Of a DNA stretch of 60,480 nt, positions 4,536 through 57,302 are shown piece after piece. The notes beneath the pieces were generated by a model. It made no database searches. It was not told the DNA's origin and was given only the letters and a program-made list of their open reading frames with translations. The DNA is from an uncultured Nitrospiraceae bacterium. Its GTDB lineage: Bacteria > UBA10199 > SBBF01. How positions within the stretch are numbered: position 1 is the first letter of the stretch; each line of letters begins with the position of its first letter. Position numbers and translations under genes: made by a program. Location of the stretch: the NCBI GenBank assembly GCA_964592255.1, contig CAZQCI010000002.1:1-60480 (forward strand), given 5' to 3'.

Positions 4536-5612
4536 GTGCTTTATTATTTTTTATATCCCTTACACGATTCACTCAAACTGTTTAACGTTCTTAAATATAT
4601 TACGTTCCGTACTTTTGCGGCTTTGCTAACAGCCCTCACACTTTATCTTTTGCTGGGTCAATGGTGGATTGGTTTTTTAAGAAGAAAAGCCATGGCGCAG
4701 ACTATTCGTACTGATGGTCCACAAACTCATTTGGGGAAGAAAGGCACTCCTACGATGGGAGGTGTTTTGGTCATAGGAGCTTCCTTGGTGGCGATTCTTC
4801 TTTGGGGTAATTGGTCCAACGATTATGTTTGGATTTGTGTTTTAGTTTATTTATCCATGGGAGCCATTGGGCTCATCGACGATTATCGGAAAGTGATTCT
4901 GAAGGACCCACACGGTTTTCCTGGGCGTTATAAAATTATTTTAGAAGTTATCATTTGTTTGGTCGCCGCCCTTTGGATGTATGGCCATAAAGGCTTGGAT
5001 ACACGTCTCTATGTTCCTTTCTTTAAGGAAATCCAGCCGGATCTTTCGTTCTGGTATTTAATTCTCACGATTTTGGTGGTGGCTGGTACGGCTAATGCCG
5101 TCAACATCACCGATGGTTTAGATGGCTTAGTGGCGGTTCCTTCCATGACGTCTTTTATGACTTATGGCTTGTTTGTCTACATTGTCGGCAATTCAGTTTT
5201 ATCCAATTATTTACAACTACCTTATGTCCGTGATGCGGGTGAAGTTGCGATTGTATGTGGGGCCGTGGTGGGTGCTTGCTTGGGTTTTTTATGGTTTAAC
5301 ACCTATCCTGCGGAAATTTTTATGGGCGATGTGGGCGCCTTGGCTTTGGGAGGTTTGTTAGGCTTGGTGGCCATGATTACGAAACAGGAATTATTGCTGA
5401 TTATCATCGGTGGCATTTTTGTTTTAGAGACCTTGTCGGTTATTACTCAAGTGGCGTCTTTTAAACTGACGGGGAAAAGAATTTTTAAGATGGCTCCCTT
5501 ACATCATCATTTCGAATTAAAAGGATGGAAGGAACCCAAAATTATTGTGCGTTTTTGGATTGTCTCTTTCATTTTGGCTTTGTTGTCATTAACGACGCTG
5601 AAGCTTAGATGA
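4536..5612 (+). CDS. mraY: Phospho-N-acetylmuramoyl-pentapeptide transferase
   Basis: Polytopic membrane protein with MraY signatures (TPTMGG, NAVNITDGLDGL, APLHHHFE). GTG start. Synteny supports the call. Confidence 0.93.
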   Translation: MLYYFLYPLHDSLKLFNVLKYITFRTFAALLTALTLYLLLGQWWIGFLRRKAMAQTIRTDGPQTHLGKKGTPTMGGVLVIGASLVAILLWGNWSNDYVWICVLVYLSMGAIGLIDDYRKVILKDPHGFPGRYKIILEVIICLVAALWMYGHKGLDTRLYVPFFKEIQPDLSFWYLILTILVVAGTANAVNITDGLDGLVAVPSMTSFMTYGLFVYIVGNSVLSNYLQLPYVRDAGEVAIVCGAVVGACLGFLWFNTYPAEIFMGDVGALALGGLLGLVAMITKQELLLIIIGGIFVLETLSVITQVASFKLTGKRIFKMAPLHHHFELKGWKEPKIIVRFWIVSFILALLSLTTLKLR

Positions 5613-5622
5613 TTTTGATTAT

Positions 5623-5732
5623 GTTATTGCGAGGAATGAAGCCATGTGTGGCGTAACGACGAAGTCCCGCAGGGACAAGCAATCCAGAAAATTTTATTGG
5701 ATCGCCACGGCCCGATGGGCCTCGCGATGACC
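5623..5732. repeat. Composite hairpin repeat in the mraY-murD spacer (divergent relative of the GTCAT-hairpin family)
   Basis: Left part GTTATTGCGAGG...AGCAATCCAG carries a nested GTCCCGCAGGGAC hairpin. Right part TGGATCGCCACGGCCCGATGGGCCTCGCGATGACC, whose reverse complement begins GGTCATCGCGAGG. It shares the GTyAT-stem-loop-stem-ATCCA architecture in inverted pairs, but the resemblance is architectural only. Confidence 0.45.
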
Positions 5733-5737
5733 GCATC

Positions 5738-7084
5738 ATGTTCAAACGAGGGAAATATTTGATTCTTGGCCTGGGCATTACAGGCACGGCGGTGGCAGAT
5801 TTTTTGATCTCTCAAAATTGTACCTTTGTGGCTTTTGAAGAGTTTTCTCGAGAGAATTTTGAAATTTTTCAAAAAAAGTTTTCAGGAAAAGGGGATTTTT
5901 ATTTTCAGAACTTATCCCCAAATATTTTAGAGCAGTGCCTGGGTGTTTTTGTAAGCCCGGGGGTTCCGTTGACACAAAAGTGGGTCCAAGAGGCGGCCAC
6001 GAAGAAGATACCGGTTCTTAGTGAACTGGAAGAAGCCTCCCGATTCCTTCAAGGATCGATGATTGCCGTTACGGGAACGAATGGGAAATCGACCACGGTA
6101 ACGTTAATCGATGCGATGTTGAAGGCGGGAGGTTTTGGCTCAAGCCTTAAAGGAAACATTGGATCTCCACTCATGACCGCGTTGGCGGAACCCCTTAAGT
6201 CTTTTTATGTTGTCGAGGTAAGTAGTTATCAGCTGGAGATGATTCAAACGTTTCGTCCTAAAATTTCCGTTAACTTGAATGTTACTGCTGATCATCTCGA
6301 CCGTTACGCTGATATGGAAGCCTATGCTGAAGCTAAGGCCCGTATTTTTATGAATCAGAAAGAAGATGAGGCCTTTATTTATAACGCCGATGATTCTTAT
6401 TGCTTGCGCATGAGTCGCAACGCTTTGTGTCGGACTTATCCTTTTAGCTTGGTCAATCGTTTTGATGAAGGTGCTTTTGTCGATAAAAACGACATGGTGG
6501 TTCGAGTGAAAGGACGAGAAGCCCGTTATTCGCTCAATGATTGTGCTCTGCAAGGGCTGCATAACCAAGAGAACATGCTAGCGTCGTTATTAGCAGCTAC
6601 TTTGGCGGGTGTTGATGAAAAAAATCTTCGATCGACACTTAAAAATTTTAAAGCGCTTTCTCACCGAGTGGAACCAGTTGGTGAATTTAAAGGCATGAAG
6701 TTCTACGATGATTCTAAAGGAACCAATGTTGGTGCGGTGGTCATGGCTTTAGCTTCTTTTGAAGGCCCTGTGATTTTGATCTTAGGAGGACGTGATAAAG
6801 GTGGGGATTACTCTCCTCTTAAATCACTCATCCGGGCTAAAGTAAAAGATGTTATCGTGTTGGGAGAAGCTAAAAATGTAATTGCAACAGCTCTCGAGGG
6901 CATCAAACCACTCCATCTGGTGGAGAACATGAAACAGGCTGTGGAAAAAAGTTATGAATTAGGAAAACCCGGCGATACGGTATTGCTCTCGCCGGCTTGT
7001 TCTAGTTTTGATCAATATAAAAATTATGCTGAACGGGGGAATGATTTTTCAAAATGGGTTTTTCATTACGAAAAAATAAAGTAG
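5738..7084 (+). CDS. murD: UDP-N-acetylmuramoylalanine--D-glutamate ligase
   Basis: N-terminal Rossmann GLGITG, Mur ligase P-loop AVTGTNGKSTT, and a C-terminal SPACSSFDQY motif typical of MurD. Synteny supports the call. Confidence 0.92.
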   Translation: MFKRGKYLILGLGITGTAVADFLISQNCTFVAFEEFSRENFEIFQKKFSGKGDFYFQNLSPNILEQCLGVFVSPGVPLTQKWVQEAATKKIPVLSELEEASRFLQGSMIAVTGTNGKSTTVTLIDAMLKAGGFGSSLKGNIGSPLMTALAEPLKSFYVVEVSSYQLEMIQTFRPKISVNLNVTADHLDRYADMEAYAEAKARIFMNQKEDEAFIYNADDSYCLRMSRNALCRTYPFSLVNRFDEGAFVDKNDMVVRVKGREARYSLNDCALQGLHNQENMLASLLAATLAGVDEKNLRSTLKNFKALSHRVEPVGEFKGMKFYDDSKGTNVGAVVMALASFEGPVILILGGRDKGGDYSPLKSLIRAKVKDVIVLGEAKNVIATALEGIKPLHLVENMKQAVEKSYELGKPGDTVLLSPACSSFDQYKNYAERGNDFSKWVFHYEKIK

Positions 7085-41399: not shown

Positions 41400-43136
41400 A
41401 TGAAACAGTGGAGACTTACGTCGTCATTGCCGGAAACAGTCGATAAGCTGGCCACGGAAATGGGTGTGTCTCCTTTGGTGGCTCGACTTCTCATCAATCG
41501 TGGGGTGAACTCGGCAGAACAGGCCCACTCCTTTCTTTTCGATTCCTTAAAAGATCTTCCCAACCCTTTTTTATTTAAAGACATGAACCGTGCTGTAGAT
41601 CGGATTATCCAGGCCATTCATACAAAAGAAGGCATTGTCATTTATGGTGATTACGATGTGGATGGCACTACTTCTACCTCGCTTTTGTTGTTGTTTTTTC
41701 AAGATTTGGGTTTTCCAGTTCGCTTTTATATCCCGCATCGTATGAAGGAAGGGTATTCGCTTAATTCTGAGGCTCTCAAGCGATTAAAACAAGAAGGGGC
41801 TTCGGTAGTGATTACTGTCGATAATGGCATTGCTGCACAAAAAGAGGCGGAGGTGGCTCGTGAGTTAGGGATAGATCTTATCATCACCGATCATCATGAA
41901 GTGCCACCTCATCTACCTTCTGCCTATGCCGTAATTAATCCGTTACAAGAAGAATGTGCGTATCCGGCTAAAGTGATTTGTGGTTGTGGTGTGGCGTTTA
42001 ATTTGGCATTGGCCCTGCGACAAAAGTTGCGAGAACAAGGTTATTTTGCCACGCGTCCTGAACCTAATATGAAAAAATATCTCGACCTGGTGGCTTTGGC
42101 TACTGTGGCCGACGTGGTGCCGTTGACGGGCATTAATCGTGTTTTTGTGCGCGTTGGTTTGCAAGAAATGGAACATACATCACGACCCGGGTTGCAAGCC
42201 CTTAAAGAAGTAGCAGGGGTTGAATCTGTCAAAGCCTCTGATTTGGGTTTTAGGTTGGGCCCACGTGTGAATGCGTGTGGTCGACTCTATGATGCTTCTA
42301 CCGGCGTACGTCTTTTGACTTCTTCTCGTGTGGAAGAAGCGAGATTATTAGCTAAAGAACTGGATGCTGCTAATCGGGAACGTCAGGTTTTGGAAGAAAA
42401 AATACTTCATGCCGCCTTAGCCCAAGTTGCTACAGATCCTTTGTCGCAAACACGCTGGAGCCATGTGTTGTATCACCAAGACTGGCATCCGGGAGTTGTG
42501 GGGATTGTGGCCTCACGTTTAGTAAGTCGGCTCCATCGTCCGGTGATTGTTTTGGGTCAAGATGGTGATTCGATAAAAGGGTCGGCTCGCTCGTATGGGG
42601 GCTTAAACTTGGTGCAAGCTCTTCGAAACTGTTCTTCTTTGTTATTGCGATGTGGAGGGCATAAGGCCGCCGCAGGGTTGACGTTACAGCCGCAAAATTT
42701 TGATGCCTTTAAAAAAGCTTTTGAGGAAGAAGTGGCCTCTTCTTTATCTGCTGACGATTGTATTCCTCGACTGGAAATTGATGATTGGCTGGATCCTTCG
42801 GCCATTAACTTGAAATTGTTGCAAGATATTAGTCAGCTGGCTCCTTTTGGCCAAGGCAACCGTGAGCCGCTTTTTGCTCTCCGTGGTATTTTGCCCCTTT
42901 ACCCAAAAATTGTCGGAGAAAAACATTTAAAATTTAATGTGACTACCCGTGATAACACTTTATCGGCCATGGCTTTTGGTATGGCGGATTTCTGGCCTTT
43001 ACCGTCTTCAGTTAATCTGGCTTTTGCATGCGAGCTTAATACCTACCAAGGTCGCAATACCGTTCAACTTAATATTAAAGATATAAAAAATAGTCATCCC
43101 CGCGAAGGCGAGGATCCAGGAATATCGAATAGCTAA
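41400..43136 (+). CDS. recJ: Single-stranded-DNA-specific exonuclease RecJ
   Basis: DHH motifs (IYGDYDVDGTTS, ITVDNG, ITDHH) and DHHA1 (GGHKAAAG). The last ~14 codons (NSHPREGEDPGISNS) are encoded by a palindromic repeat. Confidence 0.9.
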   Translation: MKQWRLTSSLPETVDKLATEMGVSPLVARLLINRGVNSAEQAHSFLFDSLKDLPNPFLFKDMNRAVDRIIQAIHTKEGIVIYGDYDVDGTTSTSLLLLFFQDLGFPVRFYIPHRMKEGYSLNSEALKRLKQEGASVVITVDNGIAAQKEAEVARELGIDLIITDHHEVPPHLPSAYAVINPLQEECAYPAKVICGCGVAFNLALALRQKLREQGYFATRPEPNMKKYLDLVALATVADVVPLTGINRVFVRVGLQEMEHTSRPGLQALKEVAGVESVKASDLGFRLGPRVNACGRLYDASTGVRLLTSSRVEEARLLAKELDAANRERQVLEEKILHAALAQVATDPLSQTRWSHVLYHQDWHPGVVGIVASRLVSRLHRPVIVLGQDGDSIKGSARSYGGLNLVQALRNCSSLLLRCGGHKAAAGLTLQPQNFDAFKKAFEEEVASSLSADDCIPRLEIDDWLDPSAINLKLLQDISQLAPFGQGNREPLFALRGILPLYPKIVGEKHLKFNVTTRDNTLSAMAFGMADFWPLPSSVNLAFACELNTYQGRNTVQLNIKDIKNSHPREGEDPGISNS

Positions 43137-43168
43137 AGACACTGGATCCTCGCCTTCGCGGGGATGAC
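43093..43168. repeat. GTCAT-hairpin family repeat: perfect 27-bp inverted pair with 22-nt spacer
   Basis: GTCATCCCCGCGAAGGCGAGGATCCAG (43093-43119) and its exact reverse complement (43142-43168). The recJ stop codon lies in the spacer. Confidence 0.85.
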
Positions 43169-51057: not shown

Positions 51058-51333
51058 TTGACAAAACAACGCCTGATGGAAAAGATGCAAATTATGGCCA
51101 TCAACAACGAGCAAGTCACCCTTTATTTAAATACACCGTTAGTTTCTATCAAGCCCCGTCAAGCGGGGGAAGTGGATATTTTAATCATCAAAGCGAAAGT
51201 GCTGGAGGAAACAGCTTCCGGACTTTTGATTCAGATGAAGGCAGCTGGTAATGAAAAAGCCATGCTTGATAATCTTCCTTTCAAGAAAATTCTCGTCCCT
51301 ACCCATAAAATTGACTTTATTGTAGTGGAATAA
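51058..51333 (+). CDS. Small hypothetical protein (weak call)
   Basis: A 91-aa ORF with a TTG start only 13 nt from a divergent gene start. Internal ATGs lie at 51076, 51085 and 51094. No RBS or family recognised. Confidence 0.3.
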   Translation: MTKQRLMEKMQIMAINNEQVTLYLNTPLVSIKPRQAGEVDILIIKAKVLEETASGLLIQMKAAGNEKAMLDNLPFKKILVPTHKIDFIVVE

Positions 51334-51414
51334 TTTTACTGTCATTGTCGATGCTAACTTATGGCATAGACCGTGGGTGGATTGTGTGTGGTTTACCATG
51401 GTTATTATGGGCCA

Positions 51415-51530
51415 AAATGTATTCAAATTTTTATGATTAAAATTTTAATATTATAAAATAATTAATAATATTAAATATTTATATATTTAAATGTATTCAA
51501 ATGAATACTAAAAATATATTTTAAGCTTGT
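51415..51530. promoter_or_regulatory. Extremely AT-rich tract with a repeated 14-mer and a palindrome, upstream of the HTH/lipoprotein cassette
   Basis: AAATGTATTCAAAT occurs at 51415-51428 and 51489-51502, 74 bp apart. The second copy extends to the palindrome GTATTC-AAAT-GAATAC (51493-51508). The surrounding sequence is almost pure A/T. Confidence 0.4.
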
Positions 51531-51562
51531 GGTCGAACTGGGCTTGGCGCTAAGCTGAAGGT

Positions 51563-52405
51563 ATGAAAGGCCCACTGATCAATCTTTTCGATTATCTGGA
51601 TTATCGACAGTATTTAAGAGACTTCTACAATCATTCCAAAAAAACTCATGCCTCTTTTTCATTTCGGGATTTTTCCAAGAAAGCCGGATTTAAATCGCCT
51701 AATTTTTTAAAATTGGTGATGGAAGGTGACCGGAACCTCACTGAGGACAGTTTGCCTCCTTTCATGACGGGTTTGGGTTTGAACAAGCAAGAGCAGGAAT
51801 TTTTTAGGAATCTTGTTTTTTTCAATCAGGCCAAAAGTCATGAGAGAAAAGATTTTTATTACCAACGTTTATTGCAATCACGGAAATTCGTCGAATTAAA
51901 ACCCATTCACAAAGACCAATATGAGTATTGTTCTGAATGGTATCATTCTGTTGTACGTGAATTGGTAGCCTCATCTAATTTTGATGGAACTCCGGAATGG
52001 GTTTCAAGTCAAATTCATCCTGTTGTTACTCCCGGCCAAGTTCAAAAATCACTCAGTATGTTGGAGAGGCTTAAATTTTTAGAGCGGGACTCAGAGGGTC
52101 GATTGCGTCAGGTTTCAAGCCTGGTGTCTACCGGAGCTGAAGTTACTTCTGTTGACTTGGTCAATTATCATGTGGGCATGCTCGACTTGACTAAAGAAGT
52201 GTTTAATTCCGTCTTACCTCATCACCGTGACGTGTCAGCCCTTACTCTTGGGATCAAAAAAAATCTTCTGCCGGACCTGAAGGAAAAAATAAAGAATTTT
52301 AGGAAGGAGATTTTGGAACTGGTGTCCACTGATCCGGATCCACAGATTGTGATTCAATTGAATATGCAAATGTTTCCACTGACAAAAATTGAAGGGGATT
52401 TATGA
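51563..52405 (+). CDS. TIGR02147/DUF4423-like putative HTH regulator
   Basis: The N-terminal YLDYRQYLRDFYNHSKK...FSFRDFSKKAGFKSPNFLKLVMEGDRNLTEDS matches my recollection of the TIGR02147 paralogous family (Fibrobacter, Bdellovibrio, myxobacteria). Its stop overlaps the next ATG. Confidence 0.6.
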   Translation: MKGPLINLFDYLDYRQYLRDFYNHSKKTHASFSFRDFSKKAGFKSPNFLKLVMEGDRNLTEDSLPPFMTGLGLNKQEQEFFRNLVFFNQAKSHERKDFYYQRLLQSRKFVELKPIHKDQYEYCSEWYHSVVRELVASSNFDGTPEWVSSQIHPVVTPGQVQKSLSMLERLKFLERDSEGRLRQVSSLVSTGAEVTSVDLVNYHVGMLDLTKEVFNSVLPHHRDVSALTLGIKKNLLPDLKEKIKNFRKEILELVSTDPDPQIVIQLNMQMFPLTKIEGDL

Positions 52406-53373
52406 AAAACAATTTTTTAATTCTAGTCCTGTTAATCCTTCTGTCCGCTTTACCAGCTTGTGGTGGCTCTGGTAGTTCCGCAACAGGTGGGAGTGAATTT
52501 GGGAATCCAACGCGTGGACTAACGGGAATAGTGACATCAGGCGCGGGCGGGGCACTGACTAAAGCACTGACGAGTAGTTGCCCGGCCGATTCGGTTATTG
52601 CCACCAATTCTACAGCAGAAACCACTTCTGTGGCCGTCAATGACGATTGCAGTTTCGATTTATCTCTAGAAACGGAAATGGCTTACGTTTTGAGCTTTAC
52701 ACAGGGATCGCAATTTGTGGCGACATTGATTGTGGACAACAATACTGGATTACTTAACACACAAACTATTTATCTTGCTCCGGGGGATACGACGGTTGAT
52801 CTGGGTACTATTGTTATTAGCAACGGACAGGCCACACCGGAACATCAGCCTGCGGAACAAAACGACCGCGATGGAGATGGTATTAATGATTTTGATGATG
52901 ATGACGATGACGACGATGGAATTTCGGATGTGGATGAAACGGATTGTGACTTGGATGGTTTTGAAGATGACGATGATTCTGACAATAGTACTTGTGGCTC
53001 CGGTTCCGGAGGGGGTTCTTCTGGTGGTTCGGGAGGTGCATCCGACACTTCCATTATTCAAGTTTCCCCTTCAGACGGTGCCGAACATGTTTTGTTAACT
53101 GAACAAATATCCGTTCGTCTCAATTGCCCGGTCGATCAATCAACAGTCACCAATGACACTTTTAACGTGAGTTCCGAAACAGACACACTTCTTTGCGACT
53201 TCAACTTTTCAGATTCGGGACAAACTATTGAGTGCCGACACGACTCCCAGGATTTTTTGTCCGATACCGAGTACAGTGTCGTGATTGATGGGATCACCTG
53301 TGAAGATGGTACTCCCATCGCGGCACGTGATTGGTCGTGGAGCACTCAATCCTCAGGGAGCGGGGACGATTAG
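52402..53373 (+). CDS. Lipoprotein with Asp-rich (thrombospondin type-3-like, Ca-binding) repeats and C-terminal Ig-like domain; paralogue 1
   Basis: Lipobox LSALPAC-GGSGSS. DRDGDGINDFDDDDDDDDGISDVDETDCDLDGFEDDDD. C-terminal SbsA/Big_5-like segment (IIQVSPSDGAEHV...VDQSTVTNDTFNV). Confidence 0.75.
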   Translation: MKNNFLILVLLILLSALPACGGSGSSATGGSEFGNPTRGLTGIVTSGAGGALTKALTSSCPADSVIATNSTAETTSVAVNDDCSFDLSLETEMAYVLSFTQGSQFVATLIVDNNTGLLNTQTIYLAPGDTTVDLGTIVISNGQATPEHQPAEQNDRDGDGINDFDDDDDDDDGISDVDETDCDLDGFEDDDDSDNSTCGSGSGGGSSGGSGGASDTSIIQVSPSDGAEHVLLTEQISVRLNCPVDQSTVTNDTFNVSSETDTLLCDFNFSDSGQTIECRHDSQDFLSDTEYSVVIDGITCEDGTPIAARDWSWSTQSSGSGDD

Positions 53374-53409
53374 AATTTTAAAAGTTGTTTCTTAACTGAT
53401 TTTTTTTCG

Positions 53410-53438
53410 GGAGCTGGTTTGGCCGGCAGACCGGCTCC
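53410..53438 (+). other. Intercistronic stem-loop between the two lipoprotein paralogues
   Basis: GGAGCTGGT-(11 nt)-ACCGGCTCC: a 9-bp stem with one G-U pair and no trailing T-run. Lies 30 nt upstream of the second gene's ATG. Confidence 0.35.
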
Positions 53439-53467
53439 TGCGAGAAAATCACATTCAAGGAGGAAGT

Positions 53468-54505
53468 ATGAAGAAATACTCACTCATTTTTCTCGCAGTT
53501 TTGGCATGGGCCGGCTGTGGGGGCAGTAGCGGAAGTATTGGGGGAGGGTCCGGCGGTACCACGGTGACGGGTAATGTGCCTGCGACTCCGGCGGCGCTGG
53601 TTAAAAATGTGACTGCCAGCGCTAATTGTGTGGCGGATACCATTATAGCGACAGATACGACAGGAGCCTCCATTTCGGCAGACATGGAGGATGATTGCTC
53701 GTTTAGTCTTACGCTCTCACTGGATACGTCCTACATATTAAGCCTGGTTTTGAACGGTGATTTTGTGGCCACGCTGATTTATGACAGCGGAATCTCCGGA
53801 TTTACGACGTCGGTCCTTAGAATTGATGGAAGCTCCAGCCTGATTGACTTAGGCCAGCTTACCATCAGCGGAAACGTGGCAACCGTTGGGAATAACCCAA
53901 TGTCTGAGACAGACCAGGATGATGACGGAGATTCTGACTTCACTGATACTGACGACGATAATGACGATATTTCGGATGCCAACGAACCGGATTGCGATCT
54001 GGATGGTATTATCAACGACTATGATGAAGAGAATGATACGTGTGATAATCTGTCATCCGACAACACGGTGGCGCGGGTGACAGAAGTGAAACCACGCAAT
54101 GATCCTCATCCAGAAAGTGGGGAAGATTTGATCGATCTCGACAAAGAAGTAAAAGCCCGTATTTCGTGCGAGATTGACCAGTCAACAGTGACTGCGGACA
54201 CCTTCCGTGTGGAAACAGAAGATATGTCTTCCTCCATTGACTGTTCTTATGAATTTGGAGATTCCGGAGAGACCGGAAATCGTGTCGTATGTAAGCATGA
54301 CAGCGATCCCTTTTTGGTGGATACCACTTATGTGGCTACCATTGATGGGGTAAGATGTCTGGATGGTCGATCGGTCACAGCGGGGACTTGGACCTGGCAT
54401 ACCATGACTTCTGATAGTACGTCAGGTGATGCGGAAGACGAAATCGATGATAGTGAAAGCGATAATGGAGATACGGGTGAAGACGATGGTGATGATGATG
54501 ATTGA
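53468..54505 (+). CDS. Lipoprotein with Asp-rich Ca-binding-type repeats and C-terminal Ig-like domain; paralogue 2
   Basis: AAGGAGGAAG RBS. Lipobox LAWAGC-GGSSGS. Collinear with paralogue 1 along the whole length, with conserved Cys positions. Asp-rich tail. Confidence 0.75.
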   Translation: MKKYSLIFLAVLAWAGCGGSSGSIGGGSGGTTVTGNVPATPAALVKNVTASANCVADTIIATDTTGASISADMEDDCSFSLTLSLDTSYILSLVLNGDFVATLIYDSGISGFTTSVLRIDGSSSLIDLGQLTISGNVATVGNNPMSETDQDDDGDSDFTDTDDDNDDISDANEPDCDLDGIINDYDEENDTCDNLSSDNTVARVTEVKPRNDPHPESGEDLIDLDKEVKARISCEIDQSTVTADTFRVETEDMSSSIDCSYEFGDSGETGNRVVCKHDSDPFLVDTTYVATIDGVRCLDGRSVTAGTWTWHTMTSDSTSGDAEDEIDDSESDNGDTGEDDGDDDD

Positions 54506-54528
54506 AAATAAAATCACTGGGTTCTGTT

Positions 54529-54568
54529 AAAAAAATCCCCTGTCGTCATTTACGGCAGGGGATTTTTA
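54529..54568. terminator. Bidirectional terminator between convergent lipoprotein paralogue 2 and the DUF1302-like gene
   Basis: AAAAAAA-TCCCCTGTCG-TCATTTA-CGGCAGGGGA-TTTTT: a stem with one bulge, an A-run upstream and a T-run downstream. Confidence 0.7.
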
Positions 54569-54646: not shown

Positions 54647-55978
54647 TTAATATTGGCGATATTTAATTTTTTGATGAGGAGTATCTTCTTTGCCTTTCAG
54701 GCGAGCTCCAAACGAATATGATAATTTTGTCATGATCGACGAGTTATTTTCAAAGTAAGACAAGGGGGTATTGGGCGAGGATGATTTTAAAATCAACAAA
54801 CCTTCCACATCCAGTTTAAGTTCTTTATAAATTTTAGTGCTCACTTCTAGTTTTCCAATGGTTTCCCGATTGTTTAAATCTTTAATAACCCCTAATTTAA
54901 TTAAAGAGAACAAGGTATTGTTAAAGTCGTATTGCAGCCCCAGAAAGGCATCGTTTTTAAAGGGACGAAAGTCGCGCAAACTGTTTTCGTGATTGTTCTC
55001 GCCTAAATATTCCGCTGTCAGTTTCAAGTCACCTTGACCAATGTTGTGGATGGTATAGTCCACCCCCGGTACAAATTGGATATGGTTAGATGGAATAGCG
55101 TTGTTGTCCTCAAACGAAAGGTCATGAGGCTGGGCATCGTTAAGAGAGGTAATCACGACATTAGTTTCCAGATGAAAGCCCCAATTTTTAACGACACTGG
55201 AAATATTGAGCCCCAGCATTTCTACATCGTAATAAAACGGATTCAAACGTAGTCTACCACGGTCATCCAATACAAACTGAAAAGCGGGGCTTCGTTCTGG
55301 ACCGTGATAATAGTCAAAGGCGATATCTGTATTTTTGATTGTTGTAGAGATTTTAAGAAAAGCCCCTACCGTGTCGATATAATCCGGTTTTTCCTGATCG
55401 GGTAGAGGGGAATAAGGGATACCGCCTGCATTGCCTGCCAATGAAAAACGAGTGTCGTCCTCCGGGAGTGGGGCTTCTTGGAGTAAAGGAAGCACACCCA
55501 ATTGAAAGGTGAGTTGGGACAAAGGCCCCGCTTGATCAATGCTGGCTTGAAAGGTTGTGACCAATTCGCTCAATCGATCTGGGTCGTAATAAAAATCTTC
55601 AAAATCCATCCGGTTGATGATGTCGGTAGGGTTAAAAGCATTGGCGACTCCCCAACGGATCATTTCTAGGCCGGCAGAAAATTCCAAATGGGGGCCGTAA
55701 ATCAAAAAGTAAGCTGCGTTGGGCGTAAAACGGTTGCGGCTGGAATCGAAGAAATCGACTTTGATGCGTGGATCCACTTCCCATTTAAAATTTTTTTCGT
55801 TGTCACCGATAAGGTCGAAATGAAATTCCACTGTTTCGTTGTCGTTGATGGAATAAAGGGACCGGTGCGGAATAAAATCACGGCTTTCATAAGAAAGCCC
55901 GCTGTTATACTGAAGGTAAGCAAAAACCTTGAGCGGGAATAACAGAAAAATTAAAATCAAATAGGGGAGGCGGTTCAT
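54647..55978 (-). CDS. Outer-membrane beta-barrel protein, DUF1302-like
   Basis: The ATG at 55978 (AAGGA RBS) gives the signal peptide MNRLPYLILIFLLFPLKVFA. The IRWGVANAFNPTDIIN motif resembles the conserved WG...NP.D segment of DUF1302. Alternating beta pattern. Confidence 0.6.
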   Translation of the reverse strand: MNRLPYLILIFLLFPLKVFAYLQYNSGLSYESRDFIPHRSLYSINDNETVEFHFDLIGDNEKNFKWEVDPRIKVDFFDSSRNRFTPNAAYFLIYGPHLEFSAGLEMIRWGVANAFNPTDIINRMDFEDFYYDPDRLSELVTTFQASIDQAGPLSQLTFQLGVLPLLQEAPLPEDDTRFSLAGNAGGIPYSPLPDQEKPDYIDTVGAFLKISTTIKNTDIAFDYYHGPERSPAFQFVLDDRGRLRLNPFYYDVEMLGLNISSVVKNWGFHLETNVVITSLNDAQPHDLSFEDNNAIPSNHIQFVPGVDYTIHNIGQGDLKLTAEYLGENNHENSLRDFRPFKNDAFLGLQYDFNNTLFSLIKLGVIKDLNNRETIGKLEVSTKIYKELKLDVEGLLILKSSSPNTPLSYFENNSSIMTKLSYSFGARLKGKEDTPHQKIKYRQY

Positions 55979-56042
55979 TATCCTTAAGTTGACCATGCCT
56001 TGGATTGCTTTTCAACGGATAATTCGGGAGCGGATAATTCAT

Positions 56043-56213
56043 AGATATTTGTGTCACCACTGGTGACACTTTTTGATCATTTTCATAAATCTCATAAAAT
56101 TGTTTCATTCGATAAAGACCTCTTCTGTTAAAACCTTTAAGATCATTAAATTTTTTAGAAAGGTGATTTGCCAATTGTTCAACCACACCAAGACCCCAGT
56201 ATTGCCAATGAGC
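56043..56213 (-). pseudogene. Remnant of a DUF1016/YhcG-type (PDDEXK nuclease) gene
   Basis: Translation ...HWQYWGLGVVEQLANHLSKKFNDLKGFNRRGLYRMKQFYEIYENDQKVSPVVTQIS matches only a short N-proximal stretch of ~350-aa DUF1016 proteins. The nuclease domain is absent and the frame drifts into unrelated sequence. Confidence 0.5.
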
Positions 56214-56429: not shown

Positions 56430-57302
56430 TTACCTCGCCAACGCGCGTTCTGAAAAATCGGCGTCGGTTAAGCCGGTCCCAATTTTTAAATTTTCCATCG
56501 TCAATTTTGTTTTTTTGTTGGTGAGGTGATTTTCCATGACGATAGTGAAGGGACGGTTGAAGCGGCCGTTAATGACTTGAAAATCAGTAAAAATAGCTGT
56601 TTTTTCCAAACGACTTTTTTTGTCGTAGAAGTCTGCTTTCACTGTTTTGTAAATATCAGTGCGTATCCAAGACACGGTTTTGGAATAACCGGAGTCGGTG
56701 TCCTTAGGGATAGATTCTACCACAAAGCAAGTGGACTCCCCGCAGGCTTCAGTATTTTTGTATTGATAAGAATATTTATCGATGTCGGCAGGGATTAAAT
56801 CTTCAAAACTAAATTCTGATCCGACGAAAGACCCGTTTTTACCGCTTCCGGAAATACGTCGTGTTTTTTGCATGGCGGGCAAATAGAACCATTGATCGTC
56901 ATCCCGGTTTTTGTTTTGGATACTTAAGAGCGCGGTATTTTGAATGTCTGCCGGCTTGATAAAGCGGATGAGCGATTTCTCGCCGTCACTTCCTTTTTTT
57001 TCCAGTTTACGGCTTTCAAATTCTCGTTCGACACTTCCGCCAGAGGAGCTGATGAGGTACATATGTCCGATGGAGCTTTCGTCATGATACCCGTTGTCGA
57101 CATCTTGTTGCTTTTTGGCAATGTCGTAGCCGGATGGGGCCTCTTGGGCTAAAGTCGTTATCGAAAAAAAGAAAAAAGAGAGCAGACAGAAATGTAATAA
57201 AGTTTGAAATATGTCATCCCCGCGAAGGCGGGGATCCATGAGTTCCATTTTTTTCTGGATCCCCGCCTTCGCGGGGATGACAGTTGAAAAAAAATATTTC
57301 AT
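56430..57302 (-). CDS. LolA-like outer-membrane lipoprotein-sorting family protein
   Basis: DDQWFYLPAMQKTRRISGSGKNGSFVGSEFSFEDL is typical of the LolA_like family. The longest ORF is given. Its first ~30 codons (VIPAKAGIQ...DPRLRGDD) are repeat-derived, and alternative ATGs lie at 57248 and 57239 before the hydrophobic signal segment. Confidence 0.7.
   Translation of the reverse strand: MKYFFSTVIPAKAGIQKKMELMDPRLRGDDIFQTLLHFCLLSFFFFSITTLAQEAPSGYDIAKKQQDVDNGYHDESSIGHMYLISSSGGSVEREFESRKLEKKGSDGEKSLIRFIKPADIQNTALLSIQNKNRDDDQWFYLPAMQKTRRISGSGKNGSFVGSEFSFEDLIPADIDKYSYQYKNTEACGESTCFVVESIPKDTDSGYSKTVSWIRTDIYKTVKADFYDKKSRLEKTAIFTDFQVINGRFNRPFTIVMENHLTNKKTKLTMENLKIGTGLTDADFSERALAR
57213..57281. repeat. 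GTCAT-hairpin family repeat: 26/27-bp inverted pair
   Basis: GTCATCCCCGCGAAGGCGGGGATCCA (57213-57238) and CTGGATCCCCGCCTTCGCGGGGATGAC (57255-57281). Differs at one position per arm from the 43.1-kb copy. Confidence 0.85.

Follow-up and report, generated by a model that had tools for sequence, protein, structure and literature searches.

Several described classes of regulators and lipoprotein signals resemble parts of a three-gene cassette that we analysed at 51.3–54.6 kb of a 60,480-nt stretch of DNA, here called the window, from an uncultured Nitrospiraceae bacterium (GTDB lineage Bacteria; UBA10199; SBBF01; GenBank assembly GCA_964592255.1, contig CAZQCI010000002.1). The cassette consists of gene A, which encodes a regulator-like protein, and genes B and C, which encode two paralogous lipoproteins; a short conserved peptide of B, situated after the lipobox cysteine, will be called the tag. 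Gene A is a full-length member of the uncharacterised family TIGR02147 ('Fsuc_second')/DUF4423 (PF14394), the definition of which includes no operator, tag or pairing rule.

Restriction–modification C proteins and lambda-cI-type XRE autoregulators are small helical DNA-binding proteins whose palindromic target sites precede their own promoters; transcripts of both kinds often have no leader, and the downstream gene is often translationally coupled. One such protein, C.Esp1396I, is among the weak fold matches of A. Unlike these proteins, A has an extra DUF4423 domain of ~170 residues, its putative operator lies at −62 with a half-site 74 nt upstream and neither abuts nor overlaps the −35 element, and the genes of its cassette encode lipoproteins, whereas C proteins control an endonuclease.

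In Bacteroidota, the lipoprotein export signal (LES) is a short, acidic-containing motif that follows the lipidated cysteine of diverse cargo proteins and is present on many lipoproteins per genome. The tag is likewise short, conserved, acidic-containing, located after the cysteine and carried by diverse cargo, but its sequence is G[TS][ED]xGNP rather than of the K-(D/E)2 type, and, while the LES has no association with a regulator gene, the tag is present a single time in the genome and nearly always goes with a regulator. RRNPP systems offer a third comparison: in these, a short peptide from a neighbouring gene is read by a regulator that combines an XRE-type helix-turn-helix (HTH) domain with a helical C-terminus, and in Enterococcus such peptides derive from lipoprotein precursors. 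PlcR–PapR, Rgg–SHP and PrgX, with its lipoprotein-derived pheromones, have in common with the cassette an XRE-type N-terminus, which is putative in A, a helical C-terminus and an adjacent secreted precursor with a conserved short peptide. They differ from it in being Gram-positive and in having a TPR sensor domain and system-specific peptides, whereas here the fold search found no TPR fold and the contexts examined contained no processing or import gene.

In the papers searched, DUF4423 is named once, for Bd3700 of Bdellovibrio bacteriovorus in a proteomics table (PMC12546842). Our literature search returned no mention of TIGR02147 and, likewise, no description of a module composed of regulator, tag and operator.

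The cassette and its conserved gene pairing

We read the cassette as a self-regulated three-gene operon for tagged envelope lipoproteins, with a probability of about 0.6. All of the sequence features that a preliminary description, made from the DNA letters, had claimed for this segment are present where it had placed them, and the three genes are arranged in the order A–B–C on the + strand, followed by a credible bidirectional terminator. The elements of the cassette are as follows.

51415–51428, + strand: putative distal operator half-site, the 14-mer AAATGTATTCAAAT, with GTATTC at 51419–51424
About 51429–51488, no strand assigned: nearly pure A/T tract, delimited by composition, forming the spacer between both operator sites
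51493–51508, no strand assigned: putative proximal operator palindrome GTATTCAAATGAATAC, its centre 62 nt before the ATG of gene A
51527–51556, + strand: promoter-like elements, −35 TTGTGG (51527–51532) and −10 TAAGCT (51551–51556), from an anchored alignment of 20 loci
51563–52405, + strand: gene A, TIGR02147/DUF4423 protein of 280 aa, putative autoregulator
52402–53373, + strand: gene B, tagged lipoprotein of 323 aa, lipobox Cys20, ATGA overlap with gene A
52486–52509, + strand: the tag GGSEFGNP, residues 29–36 of B, 9 residues after the lipobox Cys
52864–52977, + strand: three putative calcium-binding DxDxDGxxD loops in B (D155–D192, including CDLDG), from an 18-sequence alignment
53397–53451, + strand: intercistronic B–C stem-loop, from folding of the spacer
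53468–54505, + strand: gene C, lipoprotein of 345 aa, a paralogue of B that has no tag and ends in a poly-acidic stretch
54531–54568, both strands: bidirectional intrinsic terminator, common to the cassette and a convergent 449-aa gene (54647–55996, − strand)

The pairing of a DUF4423 gene with a lipoprotein gene is conserved well beyond the window. Seven separate contexts of the cargo family to which B belongs were examined (the window, L003, L005, L117, L118, L119, of which L120 is the same contig from another sample, and L121). Each of them has a DUF4423 gene immediately before the tagged lipoprotein gene, and in six a second lipoprotein gene comes next. What flanks the cassette is different in each case (acyl-CoA dehydrogenase, deoxynucleoside kinase, 2-oxoacid dehydrogenase, OmpA, restriction–modification system, LolA-like). 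Of the five other loci with a second gene, L117 has one that shows no BLAST similarity. In the other four (L003, L118, L119 and L121), the second genes are of the C type and make up an orthologous group of their own, all of them with a lipobox and a poly-acidic C-terminus but without the tag; therefore, the B/C duplication is old and the pair has been kept together.

The same arrangement extends to the whole regulator family. Among 93 non-redundant TIGR02147 genes from at least five phyla, ~86 are followed by a tagged-type lipoprotein gene. For 69 of these, a regular expression identified a same-strand partner with a lipobox and the pattern G[TSAV][EDQGT]x[GDTE]N[PASTD], 57 of them fitting the strict form G[TS][ED]xGN[PAST]; a further 17 partners, recognised by inspection, carry tag variants (for example GGTETG[ST]T, VTESGNP and GTHTGNP). 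Two of the remaining genes have untagged lipoprotein partners, and ~5 have no lipoprotein partner. The overlap between the two genes is exactly 4 nt in 39 of the 69 pairs, and the tag starts at a median of 6 residues after the lipobox Cys across the family. Behind this shared N-terminus, the bodies of the partners are unrelated, comprising serpins, PF09826 beta-propellers, Kelch propellers, B-like Ig-like proteins and small proteins without a Pfam match. The window cassette has the complete set of traits, namely a downstream lipoprotein gene with the overlap, a tag after the Cys and a palindrome at −62. The co-occurrence of TIGR02147-family genes with Asp-rich lipoprotein genes, raised in the preliminary description, thus holds in so far as a lipoprotein partner is general, but that partner is defined by its tag, and the Asp-rich proteins are one cargo type.

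Two observations on individual partner loci deserve mention. In L079 and L096, both from Polyangiaceae metagenome-assembled genomes, the tagged partners are full-length serpins (PF00079, E 1e-88 to 1e-98), which we propose, from their sequences, may be lipid-anchored bacterial serpins under TIGR02147 control. The locus with the closest cargo relative, L117, harbours just downstream of its cassette (4854–5900, + strand) a gene for a prokaryotic homologue of Cys-loop ligand-gated ion channels (Neur_chan_LBD and Neur_chan_memb).

The putative operator region

The palindrome GTATTCAAATGAATAC is unique in the 2.4-Mb genome. The 14-mer AAATGTATTCAAAT, 74 nt further upstream, has only two copies in the genome, both inside the promoter region of gene A. 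Across 94 regions upstream of TIGR02147 genes from several phyla, the palindrome class GTRTWC-N4/5-GWAYAC peaks sharply at −62, where it reaches 7.2 per kb compared with 0.33 per kb across the loci, a 22-fold enrichment. Thirteen related loci likewise have, 73–76 nt upstream of the palindrome, a further half-site that matches it in variant; of 29 loci, 18 contain their own variant distally, whereas half-sites of the other classes, used as a control, reach 6%. Related loci also have a comparable AT-rich spacer of fixed length. The nearly pure A/T tract that had been described as the upstream boundary of the unit is present, but it is not merely a boundary, as it lies between the two operator sites, where it may act as a bendable spacer or an UP-like element.

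The half-site variant tracks the putative recognition helix encoded by the adjacent gene: GTGTTC goes with TSNFLMLV in 8 of 8 cases and GTATTC with SPNFLKLV in 9 of 10, and further pairs are GTATAC with NFFKLV and GTTTAC with SINF(F/Y)KFV. The position of the operator, its enrichment and this covariation constitute evidence from the DNA that is independent of the fold evidence for A, and stronger, and from it we infer both DNA binding by A and a direction of regulation. In the anchored alignment of 20 loci, the palindrome is followed at a fixed distance by TTGnnn, a 17-nt gap and TAnnnT, and the −10 element ends 6–8 nt before the ATG (6 nt in the window). This short distance implies a leaderless mRNA, and transcription of gene A would thus probably start without a leader.

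Two side observations concern operator variants. The GTGTTC-class regulators (L010, L012, L015, L018, L023 and L053) are paired with a cargo family of 420–490 aa whose tag, GGTETG[ST]T, is without Asn-Pro, so that regulator class, operator variant and tag variant shift together in this example. The genome of the window contains a second TIGR02147 gene, L002 (G000 contig C222:8-595, − strand), on a 1.6-kb contig. An imperfect palindrome, GTATACATAGAATAC, is present in its upstream region, and its partner gene is unassembled because the contig end truncates the locus.

The tag

Among the 3,725 open reading frames (ORFs) of at least 80 aa in the 2.4-Mb genome, the strict pattern G[TS][ED].GN[PAST] occurs once, in B; C is without it. 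The back-translated pattern gave 62 hits in 61 relatives, compared with 3 for a reversed control, and 0 hits in the 10 relatives that have no TIGR02147 gene. At least 48 of the 62 hits have a same-strand TIGR02147 gene 75–259 nt upstream, which is a lower bound, as the comparison covered the best 150 TIGR02147 genes. With a single occurrence in the window genome and this link to regulator genes in the relatives, the tag is not a general sorting signal in these genomes, and that role was rejected for the window genome. Equally, it is not a DNA or RNA element, since every wobble position of its codons varies, and Ser/Thr and Glu/Asp interchange; selection therefore acts on the peptide, which is presumably read by a partner.

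Some partners bear two to four tandem tags, for instance GGTDFGNPKVGGSDFGNPEVGGSDFGNPGQQGGSDFGNP in L043, and three copies are present in P0018 and L060. On a 2.4-Mb contig (L004; G012:C16, about 2.26–2.32 Mb), several cassettes of a TIGR02147 gene and a lipoprotein gene are clustered within ~60 kb. At L004, the B relative P0018, with its three tags, departs from the pairing: its gene comes after that of a beta-helix protein instead of a regulator gene.

The regulator-like protein A

Gene A matches the NCBIfam model TIGR02147 with 275.9 bits (cut-off 50) over profile positions 2–271 of 272, and the Pfam model DUF4423 with 127.2 bits (cut-off 30) over residues 111–273. Its product has no signal peptide. 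Hundreds of relatives are found at 55–65% identity; the closest named ones are annotated, for example, as 'Deltaproteobacteria bacterium' and 'UBA10199', and among the remoter ones are proteins of Myxococcota, Desulfobacterota, Bdellovibrionota/Oligoflexia, Bradymonadales and Fibrobacterota. TIGR02147 genes are present in 51 of 61 related genomes, at 1–18 copies per genome.

The AlphaFold model of A has a predicted local distance difference test (pLDDT) score of 79.8 and shows an N-terminal five-helix bundle with a pLDDT above 90; residues 144–183 are modelled as a helix-helix-hairpin, a winged-helix-like element inside DUF4423. A G-x-R-N-L motif follows helix 3 and, with the five-helix fold, is merely suggestive of an XRE or Cro-C1-type HTH. 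The fold matches are weak, and all are DNA-binding proteins: C.Esp1396I (probability 0.95), DdrO, MarR-type regulators, CapW and BrxR. A sequence search for a relative of A with a solved structure found none. The HTH label of A is consequently suggested by the predicted fold of the N-terminus, the weak fold matches and the operator evidence taken together.

The lipoproteins B and C

Over 287 residues, B and C share 39% identity (E 4e-47). The signal peptide of B ends in LSALPAC(20)GG, with the lipobox LPAC, and that of C in LAWAGC(17)GG; the lipobox Cys is conserved in the 18-sequence alignment. Also conserved in this alignment are an invariant pair, C60 and C83, in the N-terminal domain and the Cys of the C-terminal domain. 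Judged by these motifs, both proteins are likely to be exported, lipid-anchored and probably disulfide-bonded. The three-part layout that had been proposed for both of them is borne out by the alignment and by the AlphaFold model of B (pLDDT 77.8), in which a beta-sandwich (37–146) and an Ig-like domain (218–315) both exceed 90 and are joined by an Asp-rich linker of low confidence.

Within the linker, three DxDxDGxxD loops start at D155, D168 and D181, one every 13 residues, and all 18 sequences keep the Asp residues and C182. These loops, which include CDLDG and have flanking Cys, resemble the thrombospondin-3-type repeats noted earlier at the motif level only: the Asp-rich segments of B and C gave no match to TSP_3 (PF02412) at E ≤ 10 against Pfam, and neither protein has an OmpA domain. 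Membership of the Asp-rich segment or of the N-terminal domain in TSP_3 or CarboxypepD_reg was rejected on the same threshold, at which neither part matched any Pfam model. The Cys-bearing Ig-like C-terminal domain is seen in both proteins, but only that of B passes the Pfam threshold for Big_5 (PF13205; 31.3 bits against 23.6, residues 217–315, E 3.6e-7), C reaching 14.9 bits.

Big_5 is the sole Pfam match, NCBIfam gave none for B or C, and the structure search returned generic Ig-like domains only (L,D-transpeptidases, the S-layer protein SbsC and a CopC-like domain). Pfam, NCBIfam and the fold search thus revealed neither a catalytic fold nor a characterised family, and identification as a known adhesin or enzyme was rejected. 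The lipoproteins thus hit no well-characterised family, an outcome that would have spoken against the preliminary description. Together with the conserved co-occurrence, this supports its proposal that they form a self-contained module with an uncharacterised regulator-like protein.

The combination of a beta-sandwich, three loops and Big_5 is an unnamed family of its own. A word-index search had given the impression of a tiny cargo family of 18 proteins, which an exhaustive profile search, with a cut-off of E ≤ 1e-30, corrected to 359 cluster representatives. Among the best 150, some 100 are 300–390 aa long and matched end to end, the rest being giant multi-Ig proteins with one matching segment. 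From their sequences, B and C may be described as putative non-enzymatic, calcium-loop envelope proteins that look structural or adhesive.

Gene borders, RNA structures and composition

The start of gene B is located inside the stop codon of gene A, which agrees with the translational coupling previously proposed for the two genes. The second, collinear paralogue is likewise found after a 94-nt spacer (53374–53467) with a stem-loop, as had been described; the spacer folds at −38.1 kcal/mol (z −4.9), and none of 200 shuffled sequences was equally stable. Because there is no T-run after the stem, this hairpin is not a classical terminator, and that assignment was rejected. The B–C spacers of L003 and L117 also contain inverted-repeat stems, as seen by eye in the unfolded sequences. 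The downstream hairpin at 54531–54568 has an 11-bp G+C-rich stem, or 16 bp including the flanking A/U runs, with an A-run before and a T-run after it, and folds at −30.6 kcal/mol (z −5.1) on the + strand and −25.2 kcal/mol (z −2.9) on the − strand. With these runs and its folding on both strands, it is a credible bidirectional terminator, in line with the preliminary description.

Composition and codon usage, which had been put forward as a comparison of the cassette with its surroundings, give no clear foreign signature. The raised GC content of B and C sits in codon position 2 (0.46–0.48) and reflects their Gly, Asp, Ser and Thr content, so the excess is driven by amino acids. The z-scores for GC content at codon position 3 (GC3) are 0.24, 0.45 and 1.9, all below 2 standard deviations (genome mean GC3 0.384 ± 0.045), and horizontal acquisition is unsupported by composition.

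Neighbouring genes and repeats

The convergent 449-aa ORF (54647–55996, − strand) begins with a signal-peptide-like stretch and matches nothing in Pfam or NCBIfam; its syntenic counterpart in L003 is a 436-aa gene. A tie of the cassette to this gene and to the neighbouring LolA-like gene was rejected, as they are syntenic only in the closest relative, L003, and the other contexts differ. Upstream of the operator region, a 91-aa ORF (51058–51333, + strand) has no credible family match by profile search. Between the 449-aa and LolA-like genes, a 93-aa ORF (55905–56186, − strand) matches only the middle of a DUF1016 N-terminal domain (PF17761, E 4.6e-10, profile 48–93 of 137) and probably represents what is left of a YhcG-like nuclease gene, now a pseudogene.

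The LolA-like ORF is extended at its 5′ end by a segment that contains, at 57188–57287, a 27-nt palindromic repeat, GTCATCCCCGCGAAGGCGGGGATCCAG, in two inverted copies. As these translate into VIPAKAGIQ...DPRLRGDD, the gene itself probably starts further downstream. The repeat is also present at about 43093–43168 and gives 68 short blastn hits across the genome.

Proposed mechanism and alternative explanations

In the reading that we favour, A would be a cytoplasmic DNA-binding protein with an XRE-like five-helix N-terminus and a DUF4423 C-terminus containing a winged-helix-like element. It would most likely bind GTATTCAAATGAATAC as a dimer, 62 nt before its own start codon, and would probably also contact the matching half-site 74 nt upstream, some seven helical turns away, with the AT-rich tract serving as a bendable spacer between both sites. 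The promoter downstream of the palindrome would probably give a leaderless mRNA. Because the palindrome is clear of the −35 and −10 elements and at the position of a class-I activator site, we favour positive autoregulation or a loop-dependent switch over simple occlusion. Translation of B would be coupled to that of A through the ATGA overlap, and the structured spacer in front of C may determine the ratio of B to C. Each lipoprotein would have two beta-sandwich domains joined by three calcium-binding-type loops, and the tag would mark B as the cognate cargo of a TIGR02147 regulator.

Several points weigh against this reading. The 106 N-terminal residues of A match no Pfam HTH model, including HTH_3, even at E ≤ 10, so that, of its earlier designation as a TIGR02147-like HTH protein, the family membership stands while the HTH is unconfirmed by any Pfam model; the fold search with A gave no match better than E 0.1. 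By the definition used, a recognisable palindrome is present in just 47 of the 94 upstream regions, the −10 element of the window is weak (3 of 6 consensus matches), and the covariation of operator and helix ignores phylogeny and may reflect ~5 independent events. Calcium binding and envelope location are deduced from motifs, and the Asp-rich segment is of low confidence in the model. Finally, a self-regulated operon leaves unexplained why an exclusive tag should be needed and why it occurs in two to four tandem copies.

The missing HTH match, the lack of a significant fold match and the incomplete occurrence of the palindrome would all suit a scheme in which another factor binds the palindrome and A acts as a chaperone, a scaffold or in some other role away from DNA. 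A shared global factor would nevertheless predict one site sequence, whereas the palindrome variant covaries with the putative recognition-helix residues of the adjacent gene, the distal half-site variant equals that of the proximal palindrome within each locus, and the site is unique in the genome and situated before gene A; we regard this scheme as very improbable. The other alternatives address the tag. It could serve as a tether or as a sorting signal that envelope machinery alone recognises, for example in surface exposure, attachment to an outer-membrane partner or detachment from the anchor by cleavage. Its link to TIGR02147 would then be historical, the cassette having spread as a unit with cargo swapped downstream of a conserved 5′ region, and the regulator would never sense the tag. 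The conserved N-terminus in front of unrelated cargo bodies, the flanks that differ in every context, as expected of a portable cassette, and the analogy of the post-lipobox position with the Bacteroidota signal would all accord with such a motif. A general sorting signal would, however, be expected on unlinked lipoproteins, and here there is one occurrence in the window genome, with at least 48 of 62 hits regulator-linked in 61 relatives. A purely historical link is also unlikely to have survived in at least five phyla with every wobble position varied, and no candidate machinery gene was identified; on balance, a tether motif is rather unlikely.

FlgM/sigma-28 and the chaperone–activator circuits of type III secretion work as export-linked switches, and by analogy A might bind the tag on the unexported precursor, which would act as an anti- or co-regulator made 1:1 through coupling, with export resetting A. 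Regulator and cargo genes are indeed strictly 1:1, with the 4-nt overlap in 39 of 69 pairs; the tag, borne only by regulator-linked genes, is close to the signal peptide, the median distance from the Cys being 6 residues; a change of regulator class goes with a change of both operator and tag, as for GTGTTC and GGTETG[ST]T; and the winged-helix-like element modelled in DUF4423 could bind a peptide. The tag is nonetheless in the mature protein, outside the signal peptide, and near-identical among the paralogues of a genome, which leaves no pair-specificity, and Sec substrates normally leave quickly, with little cytoplasmic precursor; such a switch is unlikely. A diderm counterpart of the RRNPP systems, in which the tag is excised from the lipoprotein tether, released and sensed directly or indirectly by the regulator, might be suggested by the HTH-like N-terminus and helical C-terminus of A next to a gene for a secreted precursor, by selection on the tag at the peptide level and by the two to four tandem tags (as in L043), a layout like that of multi-copy peptide precursors. 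Yet the contexts examined contain no linked protease, exporter or importer, the fold search detected no TPR-like fold, and a tag near-invariant among paralogues and phyla would be the same signal, carrying little information, for up to 18 cassettes per cell, which makes peptide signalling decidedly unlikely.

Significance

With this analysis, the very large TIGR02147/DUF4423 family gains testable claims: binding of a defined palindrome before its own gene, coupling to a lipoprotein gene and, always on that partner, one short tag with no other occurrence in the genome. A peptide label exclusive to regulator-linked proteins has no described counterpart among lipoprotein sorting signals, and the tag could reveal a new envelope sorting or signalling route in predatory, social and fibre-degrading bacteria. 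It is doubtful, though conceivable by analogy, that TIGR02147 regulators and G[TS][ED]xGNP lipoproteins constitute an unrecognised, multi-phylum signalling system of the diderm envelope, with the tag as the active element, read on the unexported precursor or as a released peptide. Were this so, each cassette would report the fate of its own cargo, and the B–C pair of the window would be a specialised output composed of a tagged subunit and an untagged partner. The window cassette defines a conserved trio of a regulator, a tagged lipoprotein and an untagged, acidic-tailed lipoprotein and, in an uncultivated lineage, what its sequences suggest is an unnamed calcium-loop cargo family.

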